Below are positions 1-31,707 of a stretch of DNA of 64,000 bases, in pieces. The translations under genes and the position numbers were made by a program. The notes beneath the pieces are model-generated. The model was not told the DNA's origin, searched no databases, and was given only the letters and a program-made list of their open reading frames with translations. This DNA is from Opitutales bacterium (GTDB lineage Bacteria > Verrucomicrobiota > Verrucomicrobiia > Opitutales > UBA953): positions 8,393 through 72,392 of the forward strand of contig JBIKIO010000001.1 in the NCBI GenBank assembly GCA_044361555.1, written 5' to 3'. The first letter of the stretch is position 1. Each line of letters begins with the position of its first letter.

Positions 1-3000
1 AGCCATCCCGAAGGGTTGCCCGATGAAGGCGCATGTCGGACGAACAAGTCGCCGCCAGCCGTCTTGATGGTAAGGACCCGGTCGGACGCTAGCTGATTGA
101 ATCTGATGACATCAAGCCCGACATAACTAACCACGGCCGGACCGCGATCTCGCTCGCGCAATGAGACGCGCATTTCGAAATCTCCCTCCTTATTGGATAA
201 GAATTCCGTTTTCGTGCCGGAGAGCACGCCTGCAGGACGATGGCAAGGTTCACACGTCACCAACATGCGCCTACCGGTGTCATAGGCGAGGTTTTCGGAT
301 TCTCCAAAGTCGACTAACGTGCGCAGGTCCTTGTCAGAGACGGCGAAACGAGCATCGCCCCTAGCCGAACCGTCGACCCTGCCCTGACCGCTCCCCCAAC
401 GGACGGCATCCAGGACGCTCGACGAGGCGACGAGCACGAGCCTGTCATCATTCACGAACATGAGGTTCTGCTCGTAGCCATCAAAACCGATGACGGTATC
501 CACGTAAGGCACCCCCTGTGGATCCAAGACTGATTCCATCCCCTTAAGGACGTCGAATTTTCCATCCTTCCAGACGACCTTCCAAGCTCCGCAATCCCGA
601 TTAAGGACCGGCAGGGAGTCCTCGGGCAGATTGAGCTTCGGCCTGAACACCCGTCCGTCTGCCACGTTAGTGAATGATCCAGATGTCAGATTCCTGATAC
701 CATAGGCGTCCTCCAAAGCCACGACGTCATCCGATAAGGAGACTGCCGTGAAGTCCACGGACGGATACACTCCCAGTTTCATGGGAATGCCCCCTAGGTT
801 GAAGCGGAATAGACCGGCACCTGGACGAACGAGGGAAAGACCACCCTCTACCGGATAGGCTTCCTGCTTATCCGTCACGCTTCCGTCAGAAAGCGACGAC
901 AACTGAAGCACGCGGCTCGCATCAGAGGACTGCAGGACGACCTCCTGGTGAGAACCATCAGCCCAGCGGATTCGCGAACGGTCGGCGGCCTCGATGAAAC
1001 GACCAGCCAAAAGCTCCCCAGCGGCACCGTAAAGGGAAACCCAAGCCCCCCCGCACGACTGCAAGATGAGATCGCCTCCAGCGAGGCGCACCGCAGCTAA
1101 AGGCTCACCTTGAGGCGTCGTCCATCCGTCCAACTGCTCCCACTTGTGCAGAGGAAGGAACACGCCAGGACGGACTTCTATCCGATTTTCTGGAACAAGG
1201 CTGCAACTGAACTTACCACTAACGAAATCTCCGGTGGCGGGATCTACCGGGCGCATTTCCTCCGCTAAGAAGGATGTCTGCCCTAGGAAGACATCACCCA
1301 CGAAAGAGTCCTCAGGGAGCTCATAAAGAGACAGGATGTTCGCTAAAGAGGAGTGTTCGCCCGAAGGCATCACCATGACGCCCTTAAGCGACGAGTAAGT
1401 AGAGAAGGAAAATGTCTTGGCTCTTACGCTCCTTAGGCAGATACGCGCAGGATCATCGATGTCGAAAAGCTTTCCATTCGCATAGCTGCCTATCTGGGCG
1501 AACTTCCGAGTACCGCCAGAAGTCGTCATGCCAAGCACAAGCCCTTCCGAGGCGGACCATGCCACGGAAACCTTGCCTTCCTTTATCCACCATTCCGACT
1601 TGATCACAGGGCCGACAAGACGTGTTGCCGCTGGCGCATCAAGCGTGAGTTCAGGCTTACCTGCATCCTCAGGAACCTTGAGATACAACTGGGACAGAAG
1701 AGATGACTTGCCTGCCTCGAAAAAGATGGCACCGCCGGATACCTTGGGATTCGAAAACTCCCCTAGGTGAGGAAGCCGGGCGCCCTTCTCGACGTACAGA
1801 GAGATCATCTGTTCAGGCGACGTTTTAACCTTAAGGGAATAAGCCTCGGTCTTGGAACGGACGAAGACCATCGAATTACCAAGCGCATCAGACCTGCGCA
1901 GCGTCTCAGCAGGCACGTGCCTGGGAGGTAACGTCGTCTCGTGACGTCGTGGGATCCCGCCCTCGGTGCCGACAGAATACCAAATCTGCTTGGTGCCTTC
2001 CGTCATGCGGGACTTGTAGGCGACCCGCCCGGAAGGCAAAGCCCGATAATCGTCGAACAAAGGCGAAGGCAGGTCGCAGGCTAAGGCGACAGGGTCGCTG
2101 CGGCAGGGAACCTCATCCCATCCTGATCCCGTCGAACTAGAAATCTTGCCACGTTCGAATGCCCAAGAGGCGCCCGCATCCTTGGGAATCTCACCGAATG
2201 AGCGCAAGGGCGACTCCCCCATCTTCGTGGCGGATACGGCACCGGACTTGAAACCTAGGCCATACCAGGTGGAGCCAGCCCTGACGAAGGCCTTCCCGTC
2301 GACCGAAAGAACCATGTCCGCTCGACCGGAGGTGACACCTAGTTCGACCTCCATGAGCGGACCTAAGCCGCCGGTGAGCCAATCCCTGGCGAACACTCTT
2401 CCCGTCTGGGCACTGATGCTGATCAGGAAGTGACGGCCGTCTTCTGAAAGCGTGGCGGCGGATTGATGATGGTCGGCCTCGATGCCTCCCCCGGACACGA
2501 ACGAGATAGGCTTGGCGATTCCGTCATGCCGTACCACCAAAGAACCTGATTGCCAATCAAAGGCATAGCCGCCCGACCGGATGGCCTTGATCAAGGGGTT
2601 TGCTTTGAATCCTCCATCCGGAGCCAGCTCGGCACGCAGCACCCTTCGCTCGCCTTCTGCCGGAACATGCAAGACAGCCTTCTCGGGATCTTTCGCTCGG
2701 TTGAACTGGAGCAGAAGCGAGTCGCCCGATCCGACCTTAAGGACTGGATCCGGTTCCGCATCGTCGATGATCCAACCATCCGGCGAAGCCGACAGCGGAT
2801 ATCTGGATGCCAGCATGAGCGTGAAACCATCAATAAATCGACGCGCCTTTAGGCGATCGATATCGACGGACAGCCTATCGGGAGACTCGGCGTACTGCCC
2901 TTCAGGAGGCGGGAGGGACGCGGGTATTCCGTCAGCATCAAGCAGGCGGCGCCGGCCAGCATCCTCCAAAGCCACAGACAAAACCCCGTCTCCGGAGGGC

Positions 3001-6000
3001 TTGAAATAGACGAAACGCGCGTCTTGACCCACCTTATCCAGATAAGTCCTCACTCCGGAAACAAGGTCCCTCTTCCACACGCCGCCCTGGTCGTCAATCT
3101 GCACGGCGACCGATGACCCGATAACAGCGAGATGCCTTACCAGGTCGGCTTCGGCAGGAACCTCCGCCGCCGTCCTCCTCCGCAGGAGGCGAATTCTCTG
3201 TCCTTTGAAATCCGCATAAACGTGATCTTGGAGGAAGGAAACTGATTCCTCGGGTAGAAGCTTCGTGAAATCGGGGTGAATCAAGGACATCTCCGCAACC
3301 TGCGGACAGTCCACCATGACCGGGACGACCTCTTCTGACACGCCATCAAATGCGACCTTCCTGACCATGATGACAAGCCGGCCGTTATCGATCCGCAAAG
3401 GAGTCCCGGCCGCTGGAACCTGACCCGAAGCATAACCGCTCTCATGCAGATACTCGCCCGCCACCTTGACCCATCCGCGTGGAGCCCGGTCGGGCTTCAA
3501 AGTTCGGCCAAGATAAGAATAATCATAGCCGGAAATTGCCATGGAAACTTCGCCTTCGTCTGAGATAACAATCCTCTGGATGAACGTCGCGGAATCGGTG
3601 ACGACGAAACCTTCCGGCCCTTCGTAGAAATCCAGATCGGAGCGCTTCGCCGGCAAAGGCAGGTCGAAATCATGCCGACGCCCCCTGCTCCTGACATGAA
3701 GGGTCGCCGACTTTGAGCCCGGAGAGGCAAAGAGCAAGGTGGCGTCCTGGCCTAACGAATAAGTCGACGCTTGTTCCGTGAAGACGACCATCCTCCGCGT
3801 CCATCCGTCGATCTCAGACCTGACACTCGTCGCTCCGGAACGAAGCCCCGACTTACCGGACGCATCAGACCTCACCTCGACCAAAGATCCGGAAAGTGAG
3901 ACGCCCATCGCCTGCCCTCTCTGGACAGAACCTGTCGGCAGACCGTCGGCGCCAAGGCCGACGGTATCTGCATTGCGCTCATCAACGAGATAAAGACGAC
4001 CGTCCCTTCCCTTCCGGATGGATGAAGCCGTGAAGGCGGAAGGCAGTTCAGGTTCGGACCATTCGCCTCGATCCAAGTCATAACGATACAGCTTTTCATG
4101 CTCGACATGAGCGAGGTTCCGGGCGCGCACGATGGTAGCGCCCGACGCAAGCAGCAGGTCCTTGCCGGGAGAGGTTCTTACGGAAAAATCAATGGGCACG
4201 TCAGACGACGTGGAAGCGCCTTTGATCCAAGTCCTGCCACCGGTTGCGGTAGGCTTGAAAACAGCCAGATACCCAGGCGAAACAGCCAGCTTGACGGGCC
4301 CGAGCTCCCGTAACGGCGAGGGCAAAGGCACGGTGCCCTCGCCCAGGAAATAGTGGTCATCGGCCTGGGCGGAGGCGGTGACGACGCCGCCTGAGCGCGG
4401 GAACAGCACATCAGCCTGCCCGAACTTAGTGAACTTGTCGGTGCCCAGATCTACGCTCACCAAGGAGCCATCGATATTCATCGCAAGCTTACCTTCGGCC
4501 TTGAGATGGAGGACTCCTGATATCACGCCTTTACGCGAACGCGACAACGAGGGTAGTTCGGTCTTTGAGAGGGAGATGCCACCGAGGGGACTGGCCCCCG
4601 AGACAAAACCGGCTTCAATCCATCGAAGCTGGCCCGCCATGATCACGGGTGAGATGGCGCGCTCGGAAATTACCTCCACATCGCCATGCGTCCTGGAGAC
4701 CCTGCCAAGCACGCGTCCATCCCGGATGAACGGAAGATCGCCAGGCGATTCAGTAGCATACATGAAATCGACGTCCTCACCGAAAGGACGCCCCATAGAC
4801 GTGCCATCCTCCGCCTTGATGAATCCTAGCATCGAATCGACTCCTGACGACGGGTCATAGAACGCGATGCCGGCTCCGGAAGAGCGAGAGAGCACCAGTA
4901 ATCCGGCGTCAAGGGGATGGACCCGTGCCCTCCCCCCGAGAGTCGTCCCTCCCCCGAAGACCTGCCCTTCGCTGCCATCATACGAGACAAGTTTGTTACC
5001 GCCGGCGATTTTGAAGACGGATGACGCCCCACCCGCCGGAACAAATACGGGGACGTCCAGGCCGTTGGTGATCCTGAAACTGGAATCCGGCTCCCTTGTG
5101 ACCAATGAAAACTCCAGCTTATCGGTCAGAGTATAACATCCGAGCCCACCCGCGGGAGCGACCTTACCAAGACTACCGACGGGACGGAACCAATCCGCGC
5201 TGCTCCAGGCGATACGGGTAAAGCCGGGGCGCTGATCCTGACCAGGCGCATCCGGGCGATGATGGATACCACCGTCGACCGAAAGAATGAGATGTCCCTC
5301 ATAGGAATAGGCGGCGACCACTTTCGCCTTCGAGGCAGGCGATTCGCCGCTCCTCGTATCACCGATGATCCTGGCCTGGAGCAATCCTCCGGAGGATCCC
5401 GCCATCCACATGTCACCGGAGTTTGAACTCATCACGGCCATCTCTCCGAGGGTATGAAGCCCGCTGAGACCTTTGCCCACCGGCGCGCTCGCGTCGAATA
5501 CTCCGGCCAGACGGGACTCACCCTTGATATCGGCGATCCCCACGAGACGAGAACCGACGTTGGCGATCACTCCGAACGACGGCCCGTCGATCGATACGAA
5601 CTGATCGTCTTCATCTAAAGTGAGGACCTTACCCCCGCCCATCGGCAGGAATGCGACCCCGGCCTCGCTTTCTTCGATCATGGCTACTCCGAGTCTGACA
5701 CCGTCCGGCTTCACCGGGGCGAATAACCTTCTCGTCGAGCCGTCTCCCAGGCTGAAGGTGAACAGTGCGTTGTTTTCGTTGGTGGCTACGTAGGCCTGTC
5801 CGGAGGCGGCACCGCTCGACAAGGCACCGACCTTGGCGAACTGGGCGGACTTATCTGAGCTGAGTGCGTAGAGATTATGCCGGTCATCAGCCCACCAAGC
5901 GATGCTGGAGGCGCCGGAAGCAGACCTGATTTCATCAGATAATATGCGGTAGCCTGCGAGGTCGCCAGGGACTCGCTCCATGAGCTTATCCCAAGTCCGG

Positions 6001-9000
6001 CTCATGGGGTCGTAAGACCAGAATGAATCCGAAGTCGGAAAAACGAACCCCCTGCCAGCGACCGGCACCACCGCGTCGGGACTAGGCAGGTCGCCCCTTG
6101 GGACGACCGCAGCAGGCTGCCAGAGCAAACGCTCCTGAGGGCCGGCCGAGGACGGAATGATCTGCGATATGCGGAGCACGTCTCCGTCATGCTTCTCCCC
6201 TCCGCGCTGCCGGATGACAGTACCGCCTTCGGCGACGTTGACGATGCTCGTCCACTGTCCCGGGAAGGACGACGTCCTCCAGACATCATCCTCAAGACCA
6301 CGGAAGACAAGGCTGTGAGTATCGTTGAGCGCGACGACGGAGCCGAAAGCAAGCCCGCCGTCCGGCCGATCAATCCGGGAACGTAGCAGGGAGTTGACGT
6401 AGATCCGGCCGCCGACACGTCCCGGCGCCTGCTGCACCCAGCTACTGTCCTGCCTCAGATGATTCTGCAGACGCCAGATCGAACCGAGACGAGGAGCATC
6501 TTCAGGCTGAGAATCCTCCTTGGGTTCCTGGAAATACAGCTCCGGCCCAGTAATCGTGTCGCTCAGGCCGATGGGTTTGGCGCCACCGGAAGGCATCACC
6601 GTCGAGACGGGGAGAATGGCTTTCGCAGGCGTGGATGATACGCCAAGCGAATCCAATGACATCTCGTAGACACCCAAATTTGATGACACCAGGAACTTCG
6701 ACGCATCGCCCGACTGGGAGACATCGCTGATCTTTAAACCCTTGGCTTTCGCCAAGATGTCAGAGGACATTTCTAGAGGCAGCAGCTCCCGGCCCGCGTT
6801 CACGAGACCGTGCCTGCCTTGATCATGCTTCAACCATCGGCCCGCAGAATCGAACTGATATGTAAGGCCACCTGCCTTGGAGACACCTACGACGTCCGCC
6901 AAGTTGAAATCGCTGGACAGGAAAGCGGAGGACTGCACGGGATCAGGCCACTCCGCTCGTATCGTATCGAGCGCAAGACCGACGAATTCACGGAGAGCGA
7001 TGAGGCGCACTTCGGATCTTTCCCCGTCGGCGCTGGCGAGCACTACCTGATGTGAGCCAACATGGATCGAACGAAGGCGCGAATCTGGTTTGGGTAGCTG
7101 CATCTGCCGGGCGGCAGCGGTGGCAGGATCCCGATGCGACAGCAGGTCAATCCTCCCGGCATATGGCACGATGAGATAACCCACTTCGTCCACGCAGAAG
7201 GCATGGATTTCCCCGAGATACCCCTCTTCGACGGAGGTGACTTCCAACCAAGGCATAGGAAGCTCCGCCTGCAGGGAATCCCTGGGTATGGTCCGGACGT
7301 ATATCTTACCGCCTTTCACCATCCAGAGGACGTCATTCAAGGCCGAGTCTGTCCTACGGCTGATGGCCAGAGCCTCCGCGGAGGCGAGTCCTCCGTTGTC
7401 CCTCGCGCCCGGAGGCGAACCAGCCTTGAGGACCCACTTATCATCCACTCCGAAGTGAACGGTGGAACGACTCGCATCCAGACACCAAAGGTGAGCGCCG
7501 TCATGGTAGATACTCGAAGGGGCAACTTGTGTATCCGGATCAAACGACTTGAAGGAAAAGCCACCTCCTGCACCACGGACGACTTCACTTACGACATTCT
7601 TTCCTTCCTTCTTATGAAGAATCCACGCACGACCGGCCACGCTCTTGCTTCCGCAGGCGCCGATGATCTCCGAAGGCGAATTAGCAACGGCGACCAGCAC
7701 TCTCCGCGCGGCATCATAATAAAGCAGACCACGTCTGAACACGAACAAGGCGTCCGAGCCGACGTTGATCATGGTGATGGGCGGCTCGGCGGTAAGCGCA
7801 GCATGGTCGACCGAGGACAGGCCGATGATCGGAGACCCCCTGCCCTCGCGGATGAAATCTAAACCCTTCGCACCGTATAGCCCTTCGGTGGCGGCCACGA
7901 AAGATCCGTCCGACAAAGCTACGACATCGGAGAGTTCATTGGATGAAAGCCCATCAGGCACCCCGATGCGCCGGACCGAGTAGTTCCTCACATCGATGGT
8001 CAGCAGTCCTTGCTGTGCCGTCGCTACGGCGAGCCCGGAACCATCCGAGGAAAGATCGAGGGATCTCGCGGCAGCATGGATGCGCTCGTCAGGCCCGAAT
8101 AGATCGTTGAACGGCTTCTTTAAGGAAAGCCAGAAAGGCGAACTTAGCAGCAGGAACAAGGCGGTCAGCGCGAGGACGAGCGAAGCAAAGGCGTTCGTCA
8201 CGCTGATCCTACCCACCCCAGGCTCGGCATCTTCCGAAAGAGCAACGGTCTGCAGCGACTTGAAGGCTTCCATTCCCTTGGCGAAGTTCTCCCACTGCAG
8301 CGGGGAGGCCTGCATGAGGTCAGCCCATGAGGTTTCGGGGTAATCCTTGGATTTGAATCCTGCCTGGGCCGAGGTCATCAGCAACCTCGCAACGACAGGC
8401 CCCTTCTGCGCCTCACTGAAACCACCAGATTGGAGCTGACGGCGAAAAGCCACGGTGAGGCAAAGGGCCAGTTGCATCGGACTCAGCCCGGATTTCTTCC
8501 ATTCGAGAGCGCCAGTTTTCTCTGACCCGTAGACGGAGGCGAACTCCAGCGGCAGATGCTCGGCCGCCAGCTGGGCGGTGAGCATGAAGGCGAATTGCGA
8601 CTTTCTGGATACGAAACCGGGCTTCCTGAAGCCAAGGACATGACGATCGAAGTCCGATCGCAGGTCCCGAAGTGAGATCTTTGCGTCGGGAGCATACCAA
8701 GAAACTGCGGCCTGCATCTCTTTGCCGCCGGCGGGGTCGTCCCTATGCACGACGAGCATGATGTCCTTGGCGTCGTCGAGAAGAGGCATCAGTACCTTTG
8801 CGCGTAGCGCGAGGACGGATGCCTCGGAAGCCGCCCCTCGGACACGGGACGAAAGCCGGAGGAAAGCCTTCAGGAGCACGGACCAGCGATTATAGAACTC
8901 CGCCGGCCAGCGCTCCGCGACGTCGCGTCCACCGATCTCGCTGTCCTTCGCGCCGGACATCCGCGATGCAAGGATGATACGATGCAAGGCGATCTCGTGC

Positions 9001-9692: not shown

Positions 9693-9694
9693 CT

Positions 9695-19008: not shown

Positions 19009-19010
19009 GG

Positions 19011-21938: not shown

Positions 21939-22024
21939 GGGGGTGTGCCTTTGGGATACCCCCTCCCCTCCCCCCCGTCAAGCGTCTGGATTTCTTGTGT
22001 TCTTATACGAACTTTATCGCAAAA

Positions 22025-22690: not shown

Positions 22691-22692
22691 GG

Positions 22693-23232: not shown

Positions 23233-24746
23233 GGGCGCGGCGTCGTCAGGTATCCCGCGAGGATACGCACCTCGATGACCACCGTACCCAAGGTAAGCTT
23301 ATTGCCGTTCTTCAGGACATGGATGGTCTTAGACATGTGATTCGTGAGCACGGCCTTGCCGTCCTTGAGCTGGAAACTCGCGATCTCAGCGGGATACCCG
23401 CTCTTGATCGGCAAACGGACGGTAGCATCGCGAGAAGTCCCGATCATCACGAGACGGGACCCAAGGTTGACCGTCGTGGTCTCGTTTTTCGCCCAGTGTA
23501 CCACGAGGTAAGCCTCCCGGGCCACGGCTTCGGCGATTGTTACGGCCAGGGCGATGAACAAGCCCAGGAACGCGGCCCCCATCAGCCGCGAAGCCATGTC
23601 AGCGCCCGACATCGACACGAGCAGGAATCCTCCTACCGCGACTAAACCTCCCAAGGCGCCAAAGATCACGGACCTGATGACGTTCAGGTTCGGCATCGCC
23701 AGCGTGATCGTCAGACCTAGCCCGGCGCCCACGAAAGTCCAAGAGGCGATTCGCGGGAGTTCGCCGTAATCCTTCACCTCACCCAAGGCATAGGTATAGA
23801 GCGCCTGAGCGATGACACCGGCGGCGAAACCGAGCCCAAGGCTGATGGCCATCGTTCTCAGGACGGGCAAAGGCCGGAGTGAGCCACCTAGCAGAACTTG
23901 CTGGAAAGTCTCCACCGCCACGGCGATGCCGAAACAGACCAGGCCGACCCAAAGACCCGCCTGCAACGCGTCCGGCCAGAAATTCTTACGGACCAGGGCG
24001 ACATCGATCTTGGCCCCCGGCACTCCGGTACCTCTCAACACGGAACTGTCCGCCACGGCGACGGCCACCTCCTTGAAGAGATTAGCCAACCCTTCGGACT
24101 GTCGGCCATAGCGGTCCATGGTGAAGGCTTTCCCAGGAGCGGCGGACGAGAGAAAGGCGTAATCATCGGTCAGCGAAGCCAGCGTGACCACGTCAACCTC
24201 GTCGACCTTCGCGGCCTTCAGCTTGGCGACGACATCGTCGGTGGAGAAGATCTCATCATCAGGGATGTCGGTCGTCTCATCGGTGATCAGGATGACCACC
24301 TTACGGGCGTCACGATTGAAGGGCACCCCCGCCGCCACGGCCAGACCGGACAGCGAGCTATCTCCAGAAAAAGCCCTCCCACCTTTGACGAACAAAGGCT
24401 TCATCGCCTCGACGACCTTTCTGACATCAGAGGTCAGAGGATGCGTCACACGTGCGTCGCTGTCGAAAGTCACCAATCCGAAACGACCCTTGATCTTGCG
24501 CGCCTCGAGCTGACCGAGGAACTCGGTCAGACTGTTACGCACCCCTTCGAGCTCTCCCGACATGCTGCCGGAGATATCCAGGACGAAGACGAGGTCCACC
24601 GGCCGCTGATCCTCCGCGACGAGGATGGTCTCGGCACGCTTCTCCCCCACCCACCTCTCGGCGAACAAGGCAAGAAGGAGGCCGCCAAGGAGACCAGCTA
24701 CGCCGAGGACCAGCCATTTGGGAGAGCGCGCGAGCAGAGAACGCAT
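23229..24746 (-). CDS. Signal-anchor + vWA + polytopic TM core + C-terminal FHA-like domain (paralog 1)
   Basis: N-terminal helix WLVLGVAGLLGGLLLALF. vWA motifs VDLVFVLDISGSMSGE and VILITDETTD. Multiple hydrophobic helices follow. C-terminus: YLVVHWAKNETTTVNLGSRLVMIGTSRDATVRLPIKSGYPAEIASFQLKDGKAVLTNHMSKTIHVLKNGNKLTLGTVVIEVRI. Confidence 0.9.
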   Translation of the reverse strand: MRSLLARSPKWLVLGVAGLLGGLLLALFAERWVGEKRAETILVAEDQRPVDLVFVLDISGSMSGELEGVRNSLTEFLGQLEARKIKGRFGLVTFDSDARVTHPLTSDVRKVVEAMKPLFVKGGRAFSGDSSLSGLAVAAGVPFNRDARKVVILITDETTDIPDDEIFSTDDVVAKLKAAKVDEVDVVTLASLTDDYAFLSSAAPGKAFTMDRYGRQSEGLANLFKEVAVAVADSSVLRGTGVPGAKIDVALVRKNFWPDALQAGLWVGLVCFGIAVAVETFQQVLLGGSLRPLPVLRTMAISLGLGFAAGVIAQALYTYALGEVKDYGELPRIASWTFVGAGLGLTITLAMPNLNVIRSVIFGALGGLVAVGGFLLVSMSGADMASRLMGAAFLGLFIALAVTIAEAVAREAYLVVHWAKNETTTVNLGSRLVMIGTSRDATVRLPIKSGYPAEIASFQLKDGKAVLTNHMSKTIHVLKNGNKLTLGTVVIEVRILAGYLTTPRP

Positions 24747-24760: not shown

Positions 24761-26266
24761 TCAGTGGATGATCCGGACCTCGATGACGACCGTGCCGAGC
24801 GTCAGCTTGTTGCCGTCCTTAAGGACGTGGGTCGTGTGGGACATGTGGTTGATCAAAGTCGGCTTACCGCCCACGACCTTGAAGGTGGCGACGGCCCCGG
24901 GATAGCCGGTCTTGGGCGAGATCCGGACGGTCGACTCGACGCTGGTGCCGACGAGGACCGGCGCGCCGCCGATATTGACGGTGGATTTCTCGTTCTTCGC
25001 CCAATGCACGATAAGGTAGGCCTCCCGGGCGATCACCTCAGCCATCGCCACCGCGATGCCGACCGAGAAACCGATCAGCAAGGCGCCGACGACCCGGCCG
25101 CCGAAGTCGGAAAAGCGCATCCCACCGACGATGAGCATGAACGCCACGCAGCCGACGAAACCGCCGGCGGAAGCGCAGAGCAGCGCGTTCAGTTTCGAGA
25201 TATTGGGGATCACGAAGGTCATCGCGAAGCCGAGCCCGGCGCCGACCACGACCCATGAGATGATCTTACCCAAGGCATCGGGCGTGCCTAAGGCATCAAG
25301 GCCGAAGAACAAGGTCTGCCCAAGGACGCCGGAGGCGGCGCCGATCAGGGTCCCGAGCAGCATCGACTTGAGCAGACCGGGCACACGCAACGAACCCGTC
25401 AGCATGTACTTCTGACCAGCGACCAAGGAAAGTCCGACGCCGATCGAAACCATCGAAAGCCAGAGACCCACGGACATGACACCCTTGAGATAAGAGGTGA
25501 AGGAGTGGTCCTTCTGAGCATCCTCCGCGACGCTGCCCAACATGGAGGGGCTGACCACTTCCCGTGCGACCCCCTCGAAGATACGCGCAAGGCTGCTTTC
25601 GGTCCGCCCGGAGGCATCCAGGACGAAACGCTTCCCGGGGACCTGCTCCTTGAGGAAATCGAAGGTGTCGATGATCCCTGAAGAAGCGACGACATGGACG
25701 GATTCGATGCCGCCAGCGCGAAGTTCCGAGGCCAGGCCTGAAGCCGAAACAATCTGCCCATCCGGTTCGTGCCAGGTTTCATCGGTGATGAGGACGACGA
25801 CCCGGCGCGAAGCGGGGTCAAAAGCGAGACCGGCGGCGACCTTCAATCCGTCCAACGAACTCTCCCCGCTATTGTCGCCACCGCCCGAAGCCCGGAGCCT
25901 TGTCATGCCAGAAGAGAACACCATCGGATCCGATGTGAAAACTTGGATCACTTCAGTCCCCTGGTCATAGGTGAGATCACGGAAAGTCACCAAGGCGAAG
26001 CGCATCGGCACGCCGGAGGCCTTCGACTGTCGGGTGAATTCGACGATGCTCGACCTGACGCCGTTGATCTCCTTCTGCATGCTGCCGCTGACATCCAGCA
26101 CGAACACGAGATCCACCGGCGATTTATTGGGCTGAGCGGCGGCCACCGGCACAGATTCGGTCAAAGCTGCGGCCGGTTCGCCGAGCAGCGAAAATAAGAG
26201 CCCTCCCGTCATGCCGACGACGCCGAAGACCAGCCACTTGGGCGCACGATTGAGGAAGGAACGCAT
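24761..26266 (-). CDS. Signal-anchor + vWA + polytopic TM core + C-terminal FHA-like domain (paralog 2)
   Basis: Same architecture as 23229-24746. vWA motifs VDLVFVLDVSGSMQKE and VVLITDETWHE. C-terminus: YLIVHWAKNEKSTVNIGGAPVLVGTSVESTVRISPKTGYPGAVATFKVVGGKPTLINHMSHTTHVLKDGNKLTLGTVVIEVRI. Confidence 0.9.
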   Translation of the reverse strand: MRSFLNRAPKWLVFGVVGMTGGLLFSLLGEPAAALTESVPVAAAQPNKSPVDLVFVLDVSGSMQKEINGVRSSIVEFTRQSKASGVPMRFALVTFRDLTYDQGTEVIQVFTSDPMVFSSGMTRLRASGGGDNSGESSLDGLKVAAGLAFDPASRRVVVLITDETWHEPDGQIVSASGLASELRAGGIESVHVVASSGIIDTFDFLKEQVPGKRFVLDASGRTESSLARIFEGVAREVVSPSMLGSVAEDAQKDHSFTSYLKGVMSVGLWLSMVSIGVGLSLVAGQKYMLTGSLRVPGLLKSMLLGTLIGAASGVLGQTLFFGLDALGTPDALGKIISWVVVGAGLGFAMTFVIPNISKLNALLCASAGGFVGCVAFMLIVGGMRFSDFGGRVVGALLIGFSVGIAVAMAEVIAREAYLIVHWAKNEKSTVNIGGAPVLVGTSVESTVRISPKTGYPGAVATFKVVGGKPTLINHMSHTTHVLKDGNKLTLGTVVIEVRIIH

Positions 26267-26271: not shown

Positions 26272-27198
26272 TCAGGAGAAGAGATGGATTTCGATCACCA
26301 CGCTGCCCAAGGTCAGTTTGTTGCCGTTGCGAAGGGCATGCGTCGAGCGAGACATATGGTTCACCATCGTGGCCTGGCCTCCCTGCAGGCTGAAGGTCGC
26401 CACGATCGGAGGATAACCAGCCGAAGAAGCCATGCGGATGGTCGATTCGCGCGAACTTCCGACGGTGACCGGCTTTTCGCCCAAGTTGACTCGGGTGAAC
26501 TCACCCGGGCCCCAGACGACGCGAAGGTAACCCTCCTTGGCCGTGGCCTCCGCCACCGCGACGGACAGGCCGATGAAAAGCCCTATGATACCAGTCCCCA
26601 CGAGACGGGCGCCCACATCCGCGAGACCTTCGCCACTGGCTGAACTGCTAGAATCCATGACTGCACGTATGACCGTGTTGACAAAGATAAAGCCAACGCC
26701 GCCGGCCACACCGCCAGCAAAACCAAAAAGAGCTGACCTCGTGCTTTTGAGATTCGGCACTACGAAGGACAACGTTAGGCCAAGCCCGCCACCGGCGAGA
26801 CCCCACGCAATCGCCCTAAGTGTTTCAACGAAAAACACTCCGGAAAGAGGCCCGATGGCGACCTGAAAAAGGCACTCAGCCAGAGCTCCGGAAAGAAAGC
26901 CCAGGAACACGCCTACAGCCAGAGGACGAAGCAGGTCGGCGAAGAAATTTTCTGAATCGGAACCAAGAAGAACGCGCTGGCAACTAAAGATCAAAAAAGC
27001 CACTCCGACAGACGGACAGCAGAACCAAACACCCGTATGAAACATCCGCACAAGCAAAGGGATGTTCCTGCGAGTGTCATCCGCTGCGGCAATAATGAGG
27101 TTAATCAGTTCATAGGCCGCATTGAATAAGCCCGCCCCCAGTAATCCTGCCAAGGCGAAGACCAACCATTTCGGATATGCGGAGAGCAGTTTGCGCAT
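26272..27198 (-). CDS. Polytopic TM core + C-terminal FHA-like domain, no ectodomain (paralog 3)
   Basis: 308 aa. Hydrophobic helices run through the first ~220 aa. C-terminus: YLRVVWGPGEFTRVNLGEKPVTVGSSRESTIRMASSAGYPPIVATFSLQGGQATMVNHMSRSTHALRNGNKLTLGSVVIEIHL. Confidence 0.85.
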   Translation of the reverse strand: MRKLLSAYPKWLVFALAGLLGAGLFNAAYELINLIIAAADDTRRNIPLLVRMFHTGVWFCCPSVGVAFLIFSCQRVLLGSDSENFFADLLRPLAVGVFLGFLSGALAECLFQVAIGPLSGVFFVETLRAIAWGLAGGGLGLTLSFVVPNLKSTRSALFGFAGGVAGGVGFIFVNTVIRAVMDSSSSASGEGLADVGARLVGTGIIGLFIGLSVAVAEATAKEGYLRVVWGPGEFTRVNLGEKPVTVGSSRESTIRMASSAGYPPIVATFSLQGGQATMVNHMSRSTHALRNGNKLTLGSVVIEIHLFS

Positions 27199-27205: not shown

Positions 27206-28639
27206 TCAGGAGAAGAGCTTCACCTCGATGGTGACGGTTCCGAGCGGCAGCTTGTTGCCGTCCCGCAGCGGGTGCGTCGCACCGGTCATGTTATGGTACA
27301 TGGTCGCCTTACCGTCCCGCATGGTGAAGGTCGCGATCGTGGCGGGGAAGCCACTGGACTTGGGAATCCGGACCGTGGATTCAGAACCGGTACCGACGAT
27401 GACCGGGGTCGCGCCGAGATTGACGGTGGTGAACTCGCCAGGCCCCCAGATCACGCGGAGATACCCTTCCCGGGCCAGCGCCTCGACGACGGCGACGGAG
27501 AGCCCGACGGCGCCTCCGAGCACCAGACAGGCGATCAGTCGACCAAAGGTCAGCGAACCGACCAGTAGGAAGGACAGCACCAATCCAGCGAGAACGCCGC
27601 CGGCAAGTCCGCCCAAGATGGCCTTCACGCGATCAAGATTCGGGATGATCAATGAAAATGCGAAACCCAGCATCCCCCCGACGACGACCCAAGCGACGAC
27701 TTTGAGCATCTTATCCGCCAAGGCTCCGTTGCCACTCGAGAAGGCGGACAGCATGCCCTGCCCCACCAATCCGGCGAAGATGCCGGCGCACAAGCTCAGG
27801 AGCAGTACCTTTCCAAACTGTGCAGGAATCCAAGAATCTGCCCCTAGCATCCTGCGCTGGGCGACGGAAATCGCGAATGAGGTTCCTAGTGCAAGACATC
27901 CTAAGGTCAGGCCGACGGATGCCACGCCAAGCAGGAAGGCGGAAATGCTCGTCTTTCGGACGACCCCGGAGGCTCGCTGGTACTCGAATTCGCAGACGAC
28001 GACGCCGCTGGTCGTGCTGGATGACACGTTCGAGACCGTGGCTGACCTCCTGATGACCTGATCCCCGATCAGCACATCAAGCTTGAAGGGAATGTCGCGC
28101 AAGTTTGAGCGACGGGTGAATAGCTGCACCTTGAACAAATACTTGCCTTCAGGAGCCTGACCTGTGGGCCAGAAGATGTGCTCGACCGGATCGAGCCGCA
28201 GGGTCGCTCCGGCGTTCTGATCTACGTCGAGCTCGCCATGAGTCGGCGAGCGGCGTCGGCCGAAATAAATTTGAGCCCCTGTGGGGTCGATACAATGGAG
28301 GTCCAAGTCATCCAAGGTCTCCCAGCTCAAGGCCGTCCGGATATCCCCTGACATACTGGCGCCGGCCGCCGCCAACCTGCTTTGGACGGCGGAGTCGAAC
28401 AACAGCGAGGGCGACGAAGAGACCTCGGCATCATTCCGCCGATAGACGCCCGGCGAGACCTCCTCCACCAATGGGCCGGAGGCGGAGCTTGCAACCGACT
28501 TTGCGGCAAAAAACTCTCCGGCACCCCAGCCTAGCAAGGCGCCGGCCGAACCGAGCAGGAAGAACAGCAGAGGCTTGGGGAGTGAAAGCAGTCTCACGCC
28601 GCCAGAGATAATGGGACCACCTGAGGTGGCAAGCCACAA
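27206..28639 (-). CDS. Signal-anchor + DUF2135/YfaP-like beta domain (tentative) + polytopic TM core + C-terminal FHA-like domain (paralog 4)
   Basis: The start is uncertain: TTG at 28639 or GTG at 28597, with no ATG before the first TM helix. N-terminal module: LSWETLDDLDLHCIDPTGAQIYFGRRRSPTHGELDVDQNAGATLRLDPVEHIFWPTGQAPEGKYLFKVQLF. C-terminus: YLRVIWGPGEFTTVNLGATPVIVGTGSESTVRIPKSSGFPATIATFTMRDGKATMYHNMTGATHPLRDGNKLPLGTVTIEVKL. Confidence 0.85.
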   Translation of the reverse strand: MWLATSGGPIISGGVRLLSLPKPLLFFLLGSAGALLGWGAGEFFAAKSVASSASGPLVEEVSPGVYRRNDAEVSSSPSLLFDSAVQSRLAAAGASMSGDIRTALSWETLDDLDLHCIDPTGAQIYFGRRRSPTHGELDVDQNAGATLRLDPVEHIFWPTGQAPEGKYLFKVQLFTRRSNLRDIPFKLDVLIGDQVIRRSATVSNVSSSTTSGVVVCEFEYQRASGVVRKTSISAFLLGVASVGLTLGCLALGTSFAISVAQRRMLGADSWIPAQFGKVLLLSLCAGIFAGLVGQGMLSAFSSGNGALADKMLKVVAWVVVGGMLGFAFSLIIPNLDRVKAILGGLAGGVLAGLVLSFLLVGSLTFGRLIACLVLGGAVGLSVAVVEALAREGYLRVIWGPGEFTTVNLGATPVIVGTGSESTVRIPKSSGFPATIATFTMRDGKATMYHNMTGATHPLRDGNKLPLGTVTIEVKLFS

Positions 28640-28672
28640 GCAGGGATAGAAGAGGTGAACTAGAAACCTTCT

Positions 28673-29551
28673 TCAGACCGAAGAACCAAGCCAGGAAAGT
28701 AACCGTTCATGCTCCTCCATGTGCCGGCGACAATCGGCCATACGTTCACTCCGCCGCTCTCCCGCCGGATCATCCCGCAGCGCGATCAGCCTCTGCCGAA
28801 AGAAAGCATGCATGCGGCGGAGATGCGCGACTTTGGACGGTCCTTGTTCGAGGAAATCGACCTCAAGCTTGCGCTCGAGCAGCGAACGCTCGTGCTCGTC
28901 TGTCGACGAGGTGTCGTGAAGACCGAAGATTTCGGCGACCGCGAGGCGGTCGGCCAACGCGACGATGGCATCATGCACGGGAGAACCAGCCCGGGAGGCG
29001 GCGAAGGCTTGTCCGCAGAAATGGACGAGGTCGGCCATCTCGGCGTAATTCGCTTGGGATGCGAACTGACCAAGGACTCCGTCATAGGCCGCGTCGTCCT
29101 CAGGAATCAGGCGCAAGGCCTCACCCAAGGATTGCTCGGAATCGACTCCGCAGACGGCGCTGACGGCAAGCCAGCGCGCCTCGTACCATTCACGGAAAAG
29201 ACCCAGCGGGAAACCGGTGGGATTTCCGGAAGCGATGCGGCCTACGATCCGGGCGCACAACCCAAGCCGGACCACATAGCCACGAAGCGCGATCTCGTCG
29301 CACGAGGCCATATCTGGTGCTTCCTTGAGCTTCGGCGGACGAGGCGCACCCGGCCGGAAAGAAGGTGACACCATGGCGACGGGGTCGGCGGAGGTAACGG
29401 ACGCGGTGGGCGCGGCGGCCGAGGGTACGAAACCTAGGGCCTGCCAAGCCTTCGCCAAAAGCGGAGACCATAACTTCGCGGTTAAATAGAGTCCGGCGAT
29501 GATCAGGACATAGATCAGCACGAATACCTGGACTGCCTCGGAGACGTTCAT
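28673..29551 (-). CDS. Hypothetical membrane-anchored helical protein, 292 aa
   Basis: ATG at 29551. N-terminal helix VQVFVLIYVLIIAGLYLTAKLW, a short Pro-rich linker, then a helical region with no recognised motif. Confidence 0.7.
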   Translation of the reverse strand: MNVSEAVQVFVLIYVLIIAGLYLTAKLWSPLLAKAWQALGFVPSAAAPTASVTSADPVAMVSPSFRPGAPRPPKLKEAPDMASCDEIALRGYVVRLGLCARIVGRIASGNPTGFPLGLFREWYEARWLAVSAVCGVDSEQSLGEALRLIPEDDAAYDGVLGQFASQANYAEMADLVHFCGQAFAASRAGSPVHDAIVALADRLAVAEIFGLHDTSSTDEHERSLLERKLEVDFLEQGPSKVAHLRRMHAFFRQRLIALRDDPAGERRSERMADCRRHMEEHERLLSWLGSSV

Positions 29552-29626
29552 CTGTAACTTTTTAATCCAAAGAAGATGAAGGCACCCGACAAGCGGACTT
29601 TATCTCAAATCTTACGAAAACCCTAA

Positions 29627-30607
29627 TCACTTTGAGTATGGCAACTGGCCAGCCTTCATGAGGTCATTTGACGCCCTGATGGCAAAATCATCGAAGCGCT
29701 CAGGTATCTTGTGGAAATTCAGGGAGCCGTAATGGAGCGTGTAGTCGTAATCATTCGTTGTCACCCATGCTCTCTTCTGGATGCCGCCACCAGACAACGA
29801 CACGTATTGCATCACCGTCAAACTAAGCTGCCCTGAAATTTGGTCTGTGTCCTTGGGGTCGGCGCATTTCAGCGAAGCAATCAGGATGGTACCGGCGAAT
29901 TCGCTGGTATCCGATTCAGTGATTACCTGAAATCCGTTCCTGCGAAGAACAGATTCCACCCTGGCACGGACGGTATCCACGCTTACCGCATCTTCGGCCA
30001 CTAGGGACCTAACTACCACCCTTACTTTCTTATCGAAGACAGGGATCATGGACGTCGCAGCCCAGCCGACTTCACGCTTGTTGGCATCATCCCTAGCTCG
30101 GGCAAAATCAATAGCCTCAATCTGAGCTGGACTTAGCATTGCAGGCACCTCCACCCTCTTCTCTAAGGTCCTTACCACCTCCACGGGTTTCTCGACGATA
30201 CGGTCCACCGGCCGGTCTACCATCACGACATTCGGGAAAAGATAGGTGATCAGCAGTCCGATGATCGCTCCCAGGGTGACGCCTCCGGCGATCCAGCCCC
30301 AGCCGGCGACGCTCGAGGAAGAGGCCGGCGACGAGGACGGCTGCGGCACAGGAGGCTGCGCACGACGACGAGCGGAGGCCAAGGGAACAGGCATGGCGGC
30401 GACGGGCGGGAAGGCTTTCGCCGCGGCGACCTCGCCTCTCAGCTGAGTCAGCGGAGCCCAGCCGGACATCCCTTGCGTCCAGCAGAGATCCGTCCAGAGG
30501 AACTCACCGGAGTCCAGCAGCTCGACGATGCGGTCGATATCGAACTCGCCCATGACATGTCCGTTACGCGAGACGCGATATACGATGCTTCGATCGGGAG
30601 GGTTCAT
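29627..30607 (-). CDS. GYF_2 (DUF4339) domain - Pro-rich linker - TM - C-terminal alpha/beta domain protein
   Basis: SIVYRVSRNGHVMGEFDIDRIVELLDSGEFLWTDLCWTQGMSGWAPLTQL fits the GYF_2 pattern. Then AFPPVAAMPVPLASARRRAQPPVPQP and the TM helix WGWIAGGVTLGAIIGLLITYLF. Paralog of 30631-31596. Confidence 0.85.
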   Translation of the reverse strand: MNPPDRSIVYRVSRNGHVMGEFDIDRIVELLDSGEFLWTDLCWTQGMSGWAPLTQLRGEVAAAKAFPPVAAMPVPLASARRRAQPPVPQPSSSPASSSSVAGWGWIAGGVTLGAIIGLLITYLFPNVVMVDRPVDRIVEKPVEVVRTLEKRVEVPAMLSPAQIEAIDFARARDDANKREVGWAATSMIPVFDKKVRVVVRSLVAEDAVSVDTVRARVESVLRRNGFQVITESDTSEFAGTILIASLKCADPKDTDQISGQLSLTVMQYVSLSGGGIQKRAWVTTNDYDYTLHYGSLNFHKIPERFDDFAIRASNDLMKAGQLPYSK

Positions 30608-30630
30608 GAAGTTGAAAGTAAGTGAGTCGG

Positions 30631-31596
30631 TCAGCGGGGCTGAGAAGATCGCTGCAACGCGGTCGAGACTTCGGCGGATAGCTCATCGGTGAGCAATGGA
30701 AGCAGCGATAGCGTGTCAGCGTTGTATCCCGTGAAATACTTGGAACGTCGCCACACCGGATAGTCCCCTCTTCGCCAGGTCCTGTCCTTGCCGGCATGGA
30801 TATTCTGGCTGAGGGTCATGCCAATGTGACCTGAAATGTCGTCCTGCGGCCCGAAAAGCTGGATTTCCAAGACCAGACTGGTCTCGCTGTCTTCGCCAGA
30901 CGCGGCGACCCGGAACCCCTTGGAAACGAGAAGTTGCTCCACCCTAGCCCTGACCTTCTCTTCCGGGACCCCGCCGTTCGCGACGCTCCCCGTCACCTTG
31001 ACGGCGATCCGGATCACTGAACCCGCGAAATGGGGGAAAATCATATCCTCGTCACTACGCGCCATGCGTGCGGCCTCGACGGCGGCACCGAGGCCGAGGC
31101 GACGGATATCATCCGCCGTGATGGCTGAACCTGCCGAAGTCGCGACCACCCTTTCGTAGGGGACATCGACGACCCGATTGACGATGACGGTTTTCTCCCG
31201 AGGGAACATGACGGTCCAGAGGTAACCGCTGACAAGTCCGATGATCACCGGAAGAATAAGTGCGGTCAAACCAGCCGATGGCGCGGACTGCGATTGGCTT
31301 CGTCCAGCCGTCTTGGTCGCCTGACGTTTACGCGGCGGAGGGGTCTTGATCTTGGGTCTTGGGGCGACCGGCTGCGGAGGATGTGCCTTCGAAGGCGGGA
31401 AAGCTCTGGCGGCTTCGACCTCCTTCTTAAGGGAAGCCAAGACATCCCAATCGGCCATCCCGTCGGTGTAGTACAGATCCGCCTCCGAGAACTCACCGCA
31501 AGCCAGCAGCTCGGCGATGCGATCGATCTCGAAATCGCCCATGACATGGCCGTTACATGATATGCTGTAACTTATGTTGCGGTCAGGAGGTTTCAT
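30631..31596 (-). CDS. GYF_2 domain - Pro-rich linker - TM - C-terminal domain protein; first gene of the minus-strand array
   Basis: The track start 31617 is a TTG. The ATG at 31596 gives MKPPDRNISYSISCNGHVMGDFEIDRIAELLACGEFSEADLYYTDGMADWDVLASL, which parallels the paralog's start MNPPDRSIVY. Then AFPPSKAHPPQPVAPRPKIKTPPPRKRQ and a TM helix. Confidence 0.85.
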   Translation of the reverse strand: MKPPDRNISYSISCNGHVMGDFEIDRIAELLACGEFSEADLYYTDGMADWDVLASLKKEVEAARAFPPSKAHPPQPVAPRPKIKTPPPRKRQATKTAGRSQSQSAPSAGLTALILPVIIGLVSGYLWTVMFPREKTVIVNRVVDVPYERVVATSAGSAITADDIRRLGLGAAVEAARMARSDEDMIFPHFAGSVIRIAVKVTGSVANGGVPEEKVRARVEQLLVSKGFRVAASGEDSETSLVLEIQLFGPQDDISGHIGMTLSQNIHAGKDRTWRRGDYPVWRRSKYFTGYNADTLSLLPLLTDELSAEVSTALQRSSQPR

Positions 31597-31707
31597 GCTC
31601 GGAGGACAGGCATCCAATCAAAGAAGTCCTTGCCCCTTGTCGAGAACAGCCACCCGGGCGGTCTCTTTTAGATTGCCTGTAAGCGAAGGAAGAAGGCATC
31701 TTCGGGC
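31597..31707. promoter_or_regulatory. Divergent intergenic region; probable promoter region for the minus-strand array and the plus-strand GYF gene
   Basis: This is the 111-nt gap between divergently oriented starts (31596 minus, 31708 plus). No convincing -35/-10 boxes were identified by eye. Confidence 0.3.

Follow-up and report, generated by a model that had tools for sequence, protein, structure and literature searches.

A 64,000-nt stretch of DNA from a freshwater Verrucomicrobiota bacterium (Opitutales; assembly GCA_044361555.1, contig JBIKIO010000001.1, positions 8,393 to 72,392; hereafter the window) contains a single-strand array of 19 genes, which we designate g1 to g19. We tentatively read this array, with a confidence somewhat short of an even chance, as encoding a two-module, membrane-anchored sensing and response system that works through Ser/Thr phosphorylation, a diderm variant of the MoxR-vWA-linked pathways that Kaur et al. 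(2020) predicted and that have been demonstrated in the actinobacterial epibiont sensing and response (Esr) system. Module A, comprising the GYF proteins, g17, the six-transmembrane FHA-fold (6TM-FHA) proteins, the vWA proteins, the PP2C phosphatase and the kinase, is on the homology of its parts an elaborated TerY-P switch, and module B, comprising g7, g6, a bpMoxR ATPase, g4, g3, g2 and g1, is an addition known in this lineage alone. A sensing system is supported by the tight co-orientation and coupling of the genes, the conservation of the locus, the presence of bpMoxR together with g7, the homology to TerY-P loci, the FHA fold of four membrane proteins, Rosetta-stone domain fusions, related arrays in cyanobacteria and the precedents of Esr and of Deinococcus radiodurans.

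Layout, conservation and modular make-up of the array

Listing and translation of the open reading frames (ORFs) in the window gave 19 consecutive ORFs, all on the minus strand and running from 31617/31596 to position 1 (Table 1), as the original prediction had stated, and no rival long plus-strand ORF with family support was found across the array. The junction motifs and gap sizes that it had quoted were likewise all found in place, with ATGA overlaps at 10117-10120, 12864-12867, 16457-16460 and 23229-23232, a TAAATG junction at 21207-21212, TGAnnATG junctions at 9690-9697, 19006-19013 and 22688-22695, and other intergenic gaps of 5-33 nt, the exceptions being gaps of 86 nt (21939-22024) and 75 nt (29552-29626). 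At the boundary between the modules, g8 and g7 are separated by 5 nt, and g7 and g6 are joined by an ATGA overlap. The start of g11 lies at 22690 (221 aa), as had been implied, that of g5 is ambiguous (15433, 15397 or a TTG at 15472), and g16 and g19 may begin with TTG. The g1 ORF runs off the window edge at position 1 with 3,230 aa inside the window, and the protein that had been given as larger than 3,230 aa has a gene call of 3,289 aa on other contigs where the 496-aa g4 protein is identical, so that the array reaches ~180 nt (~59 codons) past position 1. Nine of the 19 products are membrane proteins in a Kyte-Doolittle (KD) hydrophobicity scan for transmembrane (TM) helices.

This layout is operon-like and compatible with one transcript. 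Scans for consensus promoters and terminators returned sites at chance level, with none in the 86-nt and 75-nt gaps, and an Rfam scan of the array gave no match. The region between g19 and the divergent GYF_2 gene upstream of it is the presumed promoter region of both, and no consensus promoter stood out within it.

Gene order from the GYF genes to the giant gene g1 is kept in assembly GCA_024638885.1, where g11 and one of g13/g14 are missing, and the upstream flank, consisting of a Sel1 protein and the divergent GYF_2 gene, is shared as well; the same order and the same flank together mark an orthologous chromosomal locus. Amino acid identity between the two was highest for g10 (96%), followed by g7 (86%), g8 (84%), g5 (78%), g13 (76%), g16 (70%), g15 (67%), g12 (66%), g4 (59%), g9 (58%), g17 (55%), g3 and g18 (51% each), g1 (48%) and g6 (39%), with that of g2 undetectable and the flanking genes at 46-53%. 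Since 4-fold degenerate sites are saturated in every gene compared (26-50% identity), the high identities reflect purifying selection, and recent horizontal transfer was rejected on the same ground as the source of the 96% identity of g10. The most constrained gene of the array is thus g10, which is probably an interaction hub, and strong purifying selection also acts on g7, g8 and g5. The synteny that the original prediction had proposed to look for is present, order and flanks being kept across relatives whose synonymous sites are saturated.

A metagenome scan seeded with g10 recovered 80 loci, 16 of which are close relatives that keep the array, with variations. The remaining 64, many of them from gut metagenomes, are canonical TerY-P loci with 2-3 vWAs, a ~355-aa vWA-TerY_C protein, a ~520-aa PP2C and a ~500-aa kinase, and none of these 64 has a 6TM-FHA, GYF, MoxR, g4, g3 or giant homologue within 10 kb. 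A compact orthologous variant of the array (L053, L052 and also L013), with the same flanks, consists of genes for, in this sequence, a beta-CASP protein, g17, g16, g15, g10, PP2C and kinase, followed by two GYF-like genes. A compact locus that holds the kinase half without the MoxR-to-giant half indicates that the array is made of two coupled modules, and the single large assembly proposed in the original prediction was therefore too strong a statement. Wherever module B was found it was joined head-to-tail to module A; no stand-alone module B was found, and the g4 and g1 families occur in this arrangement alone.

In many of the relatives (L012 2147-5575, L053 3129-6569, and also L013, L040, L044 and L045) a gene for a 1,131-1,156-aa MBL/beta-CASP protein immediately precedes the GYF genes and shares their orientation. 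The protein has an S1-like C-terminal stretch, and its gene adjoins the divergent GYF_2 gene. No trace of it was found by tblastn in the 64-kb window, and it was set aside as a candidate effector because a gene missing from the window is not an obligatory part of the array.

Component proteins and the wider 6TM-FHA family

The TerY-P triad consists of a vWA protein, a PP2C phosphatase and a kinase (Anantharaman, Iyer & Aravind, 2012, as summarised in PMC11090510). Its predicted presence in the array was borne out by g7, g8, g9 and g10, all four of which are homologous to genes of the 64 canonical loci, with g10, g9 and g8 in the canonical order and g7 of the vWA-TerY_C type. Unlike the canonical loci, which are compact, the triad is here embedded in a 19-gene array, its TerY_C vWA gene follows the kinase gene and adjoins that of MoxR, and its PP2C is membrane-anchored. 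Canonical TerY-P kinases match g8 at E ~1e-96 to 1e-122. The kinase domain of g8 (Pkinase 8e-10, 39 bits; motifs HSDLSYNN, DCD and APE) is followed by a Zn-ribbon-like CxxC (CPFC) and then a beta-rich C-terminal domain, and a sequence search of PDB with g8 gave generic kinase matches and nothing more. In g9, two N-terminal TM helices precede a middle region without domain assignment and a PP2C_2 domain at 463-665 (78 bits) with the motifs DGAG, SDG and DDRT.

Six vWA proteins had been counted, and all six carry a metal-ion-dependent adhesion site (MIDAS). Five of them (g7, g10, g11, g13 and g14) lie above the Pfam VWA thresholds, and the sixth, g12, is weak (VWA_2 E 0.014, VWA_CoxE E 0.01) but has the motif DRSSS and is alignable with the other vWAs; its orthologue in a relative also shows a weak VWA_2 match in precomputed annotation. 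The g10 vWA (51 bits, DTSGS at residues 14-18) is 42-47% identical to vWAs of canonical TerY-P loci, and its poly-proline tail (PPPPPGAPSPGP...PPLPPPPP), which is kept in relatives, may be a ligand of GYF domains. The distribution of g11 is limited to the closest relatives, the gene being found in L047-L051 and missing from L007, L012 and L044-46. In g7, the vWA domain (1.6e-14) is joined to a C-terminus with the CxxC pairs CPYC and CPKC, whose TerY_C score of 23.9 bits falls below the gathering threshold (GA) of 28.4, and the protein matches, with E values of 1e-36 to 1e-43, the ~355-aa vWA-TerY_C proteins encoded in canonical loci. We consider g7 the likely cognate vWA of the MoxR ATPase g5, because it is missing exactly where MoxR is missing; that it travels with MoxR accords with the rule that a MoxR usually has a single vWA partner.

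The membrane proteins g13 to g16 share in paralogue alignment a common core of TM1, five more TM helices and a conserved C-terminal domain of ~90 aa, and their helices carry conserved G-rich motifs. They differ in the insert between TM1 and TM2, which is a MIDAS-vWA in g13 and g14 and an unassigned domain in g16, with no insert in g15. An AlphaFold2 (AF2) model of g15, built on 25 homologues and with a mean pLDDT of ~80, has six long helices and a beta-sandwich at 222-307, and Foldseek matched this sandwich in PDB to FHA domains almost exclusively (probability 1.0, target-normalised TM-score 0.6-0.73 over ~95 residues), including those of FhaA (Rv0020c), GarA/OdhI, Ki67, Rad53 and YscD/PscD. 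The C-terminal domains of g13-g16 gave no Pfam FHA (PF00498) match at E 0.01 or better, a profile of the four domains found no FHA chain in PDB but chance matches alone, and the canonical GR, SxxH and NG positions read GS/GT, YP..IA and HMS..TH. On the structural model the assignment of an FHA fold to these domains holds, which upholds the FHA-like membrane proteins of the original prediction whilst leaving its phosphothreonine switch without the binding residues. A classical switch of that kind through g13-g16 is not indicated in the absence of the GR, SxxH and NG residues, and we regard the domain as a module for docking, any dependence on phosphorylation being putative.

These proteins belong to a family that is considerably larger than the array. 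An exhaustive profile search with clustering at 50% recovered 1,628 representatives at E 1e-3 or better, 463 of them at 1e-30 or better, and the module is covered by no Pfam, NCBIfam or PADLOC model. JGI labels members as 'Ca-activated chloride channel family protein', a name apparently inherited from vWA-bearing paralogues. In a survey of fusions among 125 members, 28 were fused to vWA domains, in up to three copies, two (P0141, at 1.7e-20, and P0138) had an extra canonical FHA domain after the 6TM-FHA module, and one was fused to a TIR domain. In P0101 a TerY-P-type kinase that is 35% identical to g8 stands N-terminal to the module and a PP2C gene adjoins, and in P0070 a GYF_2 domain is fused to the module, after which come genes for vWA and PP2C and the beginning of one for a kinase. 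The GYF and kinase fusions independently tie the 6TM-FHA module to domains that are encoded around g13-g16.

This linkage is not a property of the family as a whole. A scan of genome contigs with a narrow 6TM-FHA subfamily as the query yielded 24 loci, 23 of which are stand-alone with no switch nearby (the exception is L037), and these loci rule out a universal linkage of the family to TerY-P. P0141 is surrounded by housekeeping genes. The stand-alone subfamily is found in Verrucomicrobiota and, in addition, in two Mycobacterium members, Mycobacterium sp. BK086 (L032) and Mycolicibacterium vinylchloridicum (L033), whose proteins are 51-52% identical to the verrucomicrobial ones and whose Hanks-type kinase genes lie 6-8 kb from the 6TM-FHA gene, an unexpected phyletic jump. 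Several MAG contigs with Verrucomicrobiota-type 6TM-FHA genes (L015, L016, L021, L024, L027 and L029) bear the names Klebsiella, Akkermansia muciniphila or Proteobacteria in their titles. Since the sequences share 69-73% identity with those from contigs titled Verrucomicrobia, Limisphaerales or Pedosphaera, these titles look unreliable.

The GYF proteins that had been predicted are g18, with a GYF_2 domain, and its 37% identical paralogue g19; their TM helices lie at 102-131 (g18) and 104-132 (g19). The neighbouring g17 is kept in all variants of the array, the compact one included. Three more GYF_2 membrane proteins are encoded in the right flank, at 31708-32616 (+), 37651-38157 (-) and 38278-39033 (+), one of the three being fused to a Pmp3 and one to a PspC domain, which with g18 and g19 makes five GYF_2 genes in 10 kb; the divergent gene at 31708 keeps its place beside the array in relatives.

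In module B the AAA+ ATPase g5 is by its family match a bpMoxR (PF20030 at 4e-50, 170 bits against a GA of 27) with the GxxxTAKS P-loop that Kaur et al. (2020; PMC7159879) describe as the hallmark of this group, its Walker A reading GPPGTAKS (72-79) and its Walker B LDE (140-142). The original prediction had named it a RavA/MoxR ATPase, of which the MoxR part stands and the RavA part does not. The RavA model NF010054 scored 136.6 bits against a cutoff of 681 and aligned over model positions 1-185 (the AAA+ core) alone, and g5 has 345-357 aa as against ~498 aa for the RavA equivalog, which consists of AAA+ plus LARA.

The giant protein g1 begins with 4-5 N-terminal TM helices in the KD scan, continues with an R/K-rich helical region (~140-495) and a further TM helix at ~496-524, and ends in ~2,700 aa that are G/S/D/V-rich and non-repetitive. 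No match was found in Pfam, NCBIfam, PADLOC or PDB, a 12-sequence profile also found none in PDB, and segment-wise hhalign revealed no internal repeats. Its orthologues form 16 clusters with 44-78% identity. A tandem beta-propeller was considered for g1, the hints of which are one Kelch_1 hit at E 0.1 and three aromatic-x-aromatic-D...W motifs (0.23 expected); with no PDB match and no repeats it is not supported, though it stays a tentative candidate.

Of the remaining products of module B, g2, g4 and g6 are orphans. The fastest-evolving gene of the array is g2, relatives having a gene of the same size in the same place whose similarity is undetectable at 58%-level divergence. The coiled-coil protein g3 was correctly described as regards the composition of its C-terminal half (residues 481-916 are 60% AELKRQ and 5% P/G), but its N-terminal half is globular; its matches are weak and to coiled coils alone (SMC, LmuB, JetC and ATG16). 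In g4 a helical N-domain is followed by an alpha/beta C-terminal part. Its homologues form 15 clusters, all at least 55% identical, and a 97% identical one occurs in a Verrucomicrobiota metagenome-assembled genome. We considered g4 as a divergent vWA or VMAP-like MoxR partner and rejected this, the AF2 model being poor (pLDDT 52), Foldseek finding nothing below E 0.4 and hhalign against a local vWA alignment giving 1.4%. No family or PDB match was found for g6, and PDB sequence searches with g3, g6 and g16 gave generic coiled-coil matches at most.

Table 1. Genes of the array and the adjoining intergenic region, in coordinates of the window.
Feature	Coordinates	Strand	Description	Basis
g1	1..9692	-	Giant membrane protein, 3,289 aa	Translation, KD scan
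g2	9695..10120	-	141-aa soluble protein, lineage-specific	No family match above threshold
g3	10117..12867	-	916 aa, globular N-terminal half and coiled-coil-like C-terminal half (~450-916)	Composition
g4	12864..14354	-	496-aa orphan directly after MoxR gene	No family
g5	14360..15433	-	bpMoxR-type AAA+ ATPase	PF20030
g6	15465..16460	-	331-aa orphan between vWA-TerY_C and MoxR genes	No family/PDB match
g7	16457..17494	-	vWA (MIDAS DCSES) and Cys-rich TerY_C-like C-terminus	Pfam, motifs
g8	17500..19008	-	Ser/Thr kinase, TerY-P type	Pkinase 8e-10, motifs
g9	19011..21209	-	Membrane-anchored PP2C phosphatase	PP2C_2, TM scan, motifs
g10	21210..21938	-	TerY-like vWA (MIDAS DTSGS), 242 aa, poly-proline tail	VWA 2.2e-13
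g11	22025..22690	-	vWA (DTSGS), 221 aa	VWA 1.5e-6
g12	22693..23232	-	Short divergent vWA (DRSSS)	Weak VWA, alignment
g13	23229..24746	-	TM1, vWA, 5 TMs, C-terminal FHA-fold domain	VWA 1.5e-14, paralogue alignment
g14	24761..26266	-	Paralogue of g13 (43% identity), same architecture	Pfam, alignment
g15	26272..27198	-	Minimal 6TM and FHA-fold, 308 aa	AF2, Foldseek
g16	27206..28639	-	TM1, ~180-aa loop domain without known family, 5 TMs, FHA-fold domain	Alignment, TM scan
g17	28673..29551	-	292 aa, N-terminal TM, no known domain	Pfam, TM scan
g18	29627..30607	-	N-terminal GYF_2, P-rich linker, one TM, ~190-aa C-terminal domain	GYF_2 1.5e-8, 34.7 bits
g19	30631..31596	-	Paralogue of g18 (37% identity), first array gene in window	Alignment
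Divergent intergenic region upstream of g19	31597..31707	.	Presumed common promoter region	Between g19 and plus-strand GYF_2 gene 31708-32616

Proposed mechanism, known systems and competing explanations

In the mechanism that we propose, the AAA+ ATPase g5 and the MIDAS-vWA g7 of module B would act as a chaperone pair that sets or reads the state of a complex built around g1, together with g2-g4 and g6, and that forms the sensor side. The sensor itself would be the large non-helical part of g1, for which a position on the periplasmic or surface side is predicted. In module A, the kinase g8 and the membrane-tethered PP2C g9 would turn the signal into a phosphorylation state. The four 6TM-FHA proteins g13-g16, with vWA or other ectodomains in loop 1 (the vWAs of g13 and g14 are predicted to be periplasmic) and cytoplasmic FHA folds, could form a hetero-oligomeric membrane platform, joined by g17 and the GYF/TM proteins g18-g19, on which the kinase, the phosphatase and the cytosolic vWAs (g10-g12) would dock and which would probably receive or emit the signal; proline-rich tails, that of g10 for instance, may be bound by the GYF domains. 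The trigger might be attack on the envelope by phage, epibiont or predator, or envelope stress. Topology, kinase-substrate pairs, direction of the signal and trigger are all inferred.

The closest experimentally studied analogue of the array is Esr of Actinomycetes (Wang et al., bioRxiv, September 2026; PMC13622651), in which a surface sensor is followed by MoxR/vWA, then by a Ser/Thr kinase and phosphatase and then by an FHA protein, EsrG, whose threonine phosphorylation leads to defence against Saccharibacteria. The array holds the same component classes, MoxR, vWA, Ser/Thr kinase and phosphatase (g5, g7, g8 and g9) together with FHA-type proteins, and the two also agree in their pattern of rates, MoxR, vWA and kinase being conserved and the large envelope protein, here g1, divergent. 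The comparison is one of component class and not of sequence orthology, and the array, whose host is a diderm Verrucomicrobiota bacterium, differs from Esr, which its authors regard as essentially confined to Actinomycetes, in several respects. EsrA consists of Sec-secreted Ig repeats and a WD40 propeller, whereas g1 is polytopic and starts with several TM helices and not with a signal peptide; the transglutaminase EsrD has no detected counterpart in the array, none of the 19 products having a Pfam match to Ig, WD40 or transglutaminase; and EsrG is a soluble protein of pseudophosphatase, intrinsically disordered region and canonical FHA domain, whereas in the array a degenerate FHA fold ends 6TM proteins. 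The kinase and PP2C of the array are, moreover, of the TerY-P type, and GYF, TM, coiled-coil and orphan proteins are encoded in it in addition.

In 2020 a role as conflict sensors was predicted for MoxR-vWA systems with linked Ser/Thr kinases (PMC7159879), and for Esr, which is one of them, the sensing of epibionts in Actinobacteria was demonstrated in 2026. The beta-propeller-containing MoxR-vWA ternary systems of the 2020 work share with the array the MoxR subfamily (PF20030, GxxxTAKS), phyla that include Verrucomicrobia, a membrane-spanning variable third component, additional alpha-helical or alpha+beta orphans and the lack of a conventional effector. The fusion of vWA to a C-terminal beta-propeller of ~4 blades described there was not found in the array, none of the six vWA proteins having room or a Pfam signal for it, and the TPR and beta-propeller that end the third component there, after a variable N-terminus and TM, are not detectable in g1. 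A linkage to kinase, PP2C and FHA is not described in that work for the ternary subsystem. FHA domains do tune the balance of kinase and phosphatase in a vWA-STPK (Ser/Thr protein kinase)-FHA-PP2C operon of D. radiodurans. Hanks kinase, PP2C, FHA fold and vWA ectodomain also come together at the inner membrane in the threonine-phosphorylation pathway of type VI secretion (PpkA/PppA/Fha1), but there the vWA is on the kinase and in the array it is on FHA-fold membrane proteins. An FHA fold without phosphothreonine-binding residues is likewise known from the YscD type of the type III secretion system, YscD being among the Foldseek matches of g15. The array differs from both secretion systems in having no type VI or type III secretion genes, and the canonical phosphothreonine-binding residues are missing from it.

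A further relative of module A is found on cyanobacterial plasmids, where tandem full-length homologues of g13/g14 (E 1e-41 to 2e-62; Tolypothrix PCC 7712, NZ_CP063787.1, and Trichormus variabilis ATCC 29413 plasmid B, NC_007411.1) are followed on the same strand by genes for a vWA protein, an FHA protein, a PP2C and a Ser/Thr kinase. These arrays are plasmid-borne and uncharacterised, no relation of their kinase and PP2C to the g8/g9 type was detected, they have a stand-alone canonical FHA protein, and no MoxR, giant or GYF gene is annotated within 9 kb. In both (L124, NZ_CP063787.1 45419-63787, and L125, NC_007411.1 1-14974) the TM region of the g13/g14 homologues is apparently duplicated, giving ~9-10 TM helices, and the arrays also encode an ARC6/PARC6-family protein, a serine hydrolase and further vWAs; that of Tolypothrix adjoins Tn7-like TnsA/ATP-binding genes. 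In the literature searched, the exact array was not found, which agrees with the statement of the original prediction that it is not a described system, but its logic, in which a sensor at the surface or in the membrane is combined with MoxR and vWA, with kinase and PP2C and with an output of FHA type, matches that of the MoxR-vWA conflict systems (PMC7159879) and of Esr (PMC13622651), and to that extent the statement went too far.

Several observations weigh against the array being a coupled sensing system. After its kinase gene the compact variant has no g7, g6, MoxR, g4, g3, g2 or giant gene, so that the coupling of the modules may be loose. No recognisable effector or transcription-factor output is encoded in the window, and in g1 neither repeats nor a signal of beta-propeller, Ig or TPR domains were detected; a vWA was not detected in g4 either (hhalign probability 1.4%), and the phosphothreonine-contacting residues are unconserved in the wider 6TM-FHA family. 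The locus occupies a stable chromosomal position and not a variable island, which is atypical for defence systems, and in PADLOC g7, g9 and g10 match no family at E 0.01 or better and g8 matches generic defence-kinase models alone (mad6, PD-T4-6, MkoA and PglW).

On a rival reading the array would be two independent neighbours, an extended TerY-P switch with its membrane partners (g19-g8) and a bpMoxR-vWA chaperone that matures or assembles the giant protein (g7-g1), co-transcribed for economy and without signalling from one to the other. MoxR-vWA pairs serve generally as chaperones of assembly (PMC7159879), and a kinase half without MoxR is seen in the compact locus (L053, L052 and L013), in the 64 canonical TerY-P loci and, within the 9 kb annotated, in the cyanobacterial analogues. 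We nevertheless regard such independence as unlikely, because module B is always head-to-tail with module A, with the 5-nt g8-g7 gap and the g7/g6 ATGA overlap, and was never found alone, because g7 is a TerY_C-type vWA and thus a TerY-P component relocated beside MoxR, and because Esr couples exactly these component classes (PMC13622651). About equally unlikely in our view is a lineage-specific envelope or cell-biological machine for adhesion, motility or envelope architecture, with g1 and g3 as structural parts, MoxR-vWA assembling them, the kinase and phosphatase regulating assembly and no role in conflict. Vertical inheritance at a fixed locus, the very strong constraint on the core genes, the nine membrane proteins, the coiled-coil protein g3, a weak GltJ-like GYF match of g18 and the occurrence of FHA folds lacking phosphothreonine residues in the type III secretion ring protein YscD all fit such a machine, but no match to known motility, secretion or adhesin families was found, the nearest systems (TerY-P, bpMoxR and Esr) are all linked to conflict or stress sensing, and the 6TM-FHA family includes fusions to TIR and to canonical FHA domains.

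The TIR fusion, found in a single 6TM-FHA member, and the conserved G-rich motifs of the TM helices would also suit an abortive-infection system against phage, in which infection, once sensed by the TerY-P switch, would lead to opening of the glycine-zipper-rich 6TM proteins, effectors that would then permeabilise the membrane, with the MoxR module as an accessory. TerY-P-like modules are reported to act on their own against phage (Gao et al., 2020, according to PMC11090510), the bpMoxR family was defined from predicted conflict systems (PMC7159879), g2, g6 and g1 evolve fast, and the cyanobacterial analogues are on plasmids beside Tn7-like genes. This explanation strikes us as the least probable of those considered, given that g7, g9, g10 and g13-g16 have no PADLOC family and g8 has generic models alone, that the locus is chromosomal with flanks conserved over deep divergence, that g10, g7 and g8 are under extreme purifying selection, that four paralogues with different ectodomains resemble receptors or scaffolds more than toxins, and that one 6TM-FHA subfamily is stand-alone and conserved with no switch nearby. 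The place of the locus, fixed in the chromosome, and the extreme constraint on its core speak against a mobile defence island of the typical kind. The relatives of each recognisable part speak for a role in conflict or stress sensing.

Neighbouring genes and significance

Beyond the GYF_2 genes, the right flank contains at 39065-48369 genes for a microbial-type PARG (39065-39889), a DUF805 membrane protein, an SNF2 helicase (41194-43362), a calcineurin-like phosphoesterase, a poly(A)-polymerase/CCA-type nucleotidyltransferase and a DUF2779 protein. In the relative L123 a 723-aa SNF2 helicase, similar to that of the window in size and Pfam domains, is encoded shortly downstream of the giant gene with one small ORF between, which indicates that the flank has been rearranged. 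Further on (48627-53971, +) lie, co-oriented, two ORFs without known function and genes for a 512-aa HSP70/MreB-like ATPase, a TerB-domain protein and an M48 peptidase; the TerB-domain (Ter-family) gene is 17 kb from the TerY-P-type genes.

In its boldest form, which we think rather doubtful, our reading would make the array an undescribed trans-envelope threat-sensing machine of diderm bacteria, in which g1 is read by bpMoxR-vWA and the TerY-P kinase and phosphatase, and would make the 6TM-FHA proteins a new and widespread class of phosphorylation-controlled membrane transducers or channels. The array suggests that a Gram-negative phylum has an Esr-like MoxR-vWA-kinase logic made up of other components. 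Through the array a large membrane-protein family without annotation has also come to light, with 6TM and a degenerate FHA fold, and fusions or linkages of this family to vWA, kinase, PP2C and GYF domains recur. The near-invariance of g10 (96% identity with synonymous sites saturated) marks this protein as a candidate for structural study. The Verrucomicrobiota host is known from metagenomes alone, and the tandem homologues on plasmids of culturable cyanobacteria, such as Trichormus variabilis ATCC 29413, make the 6TM-FHA family genetically testable.

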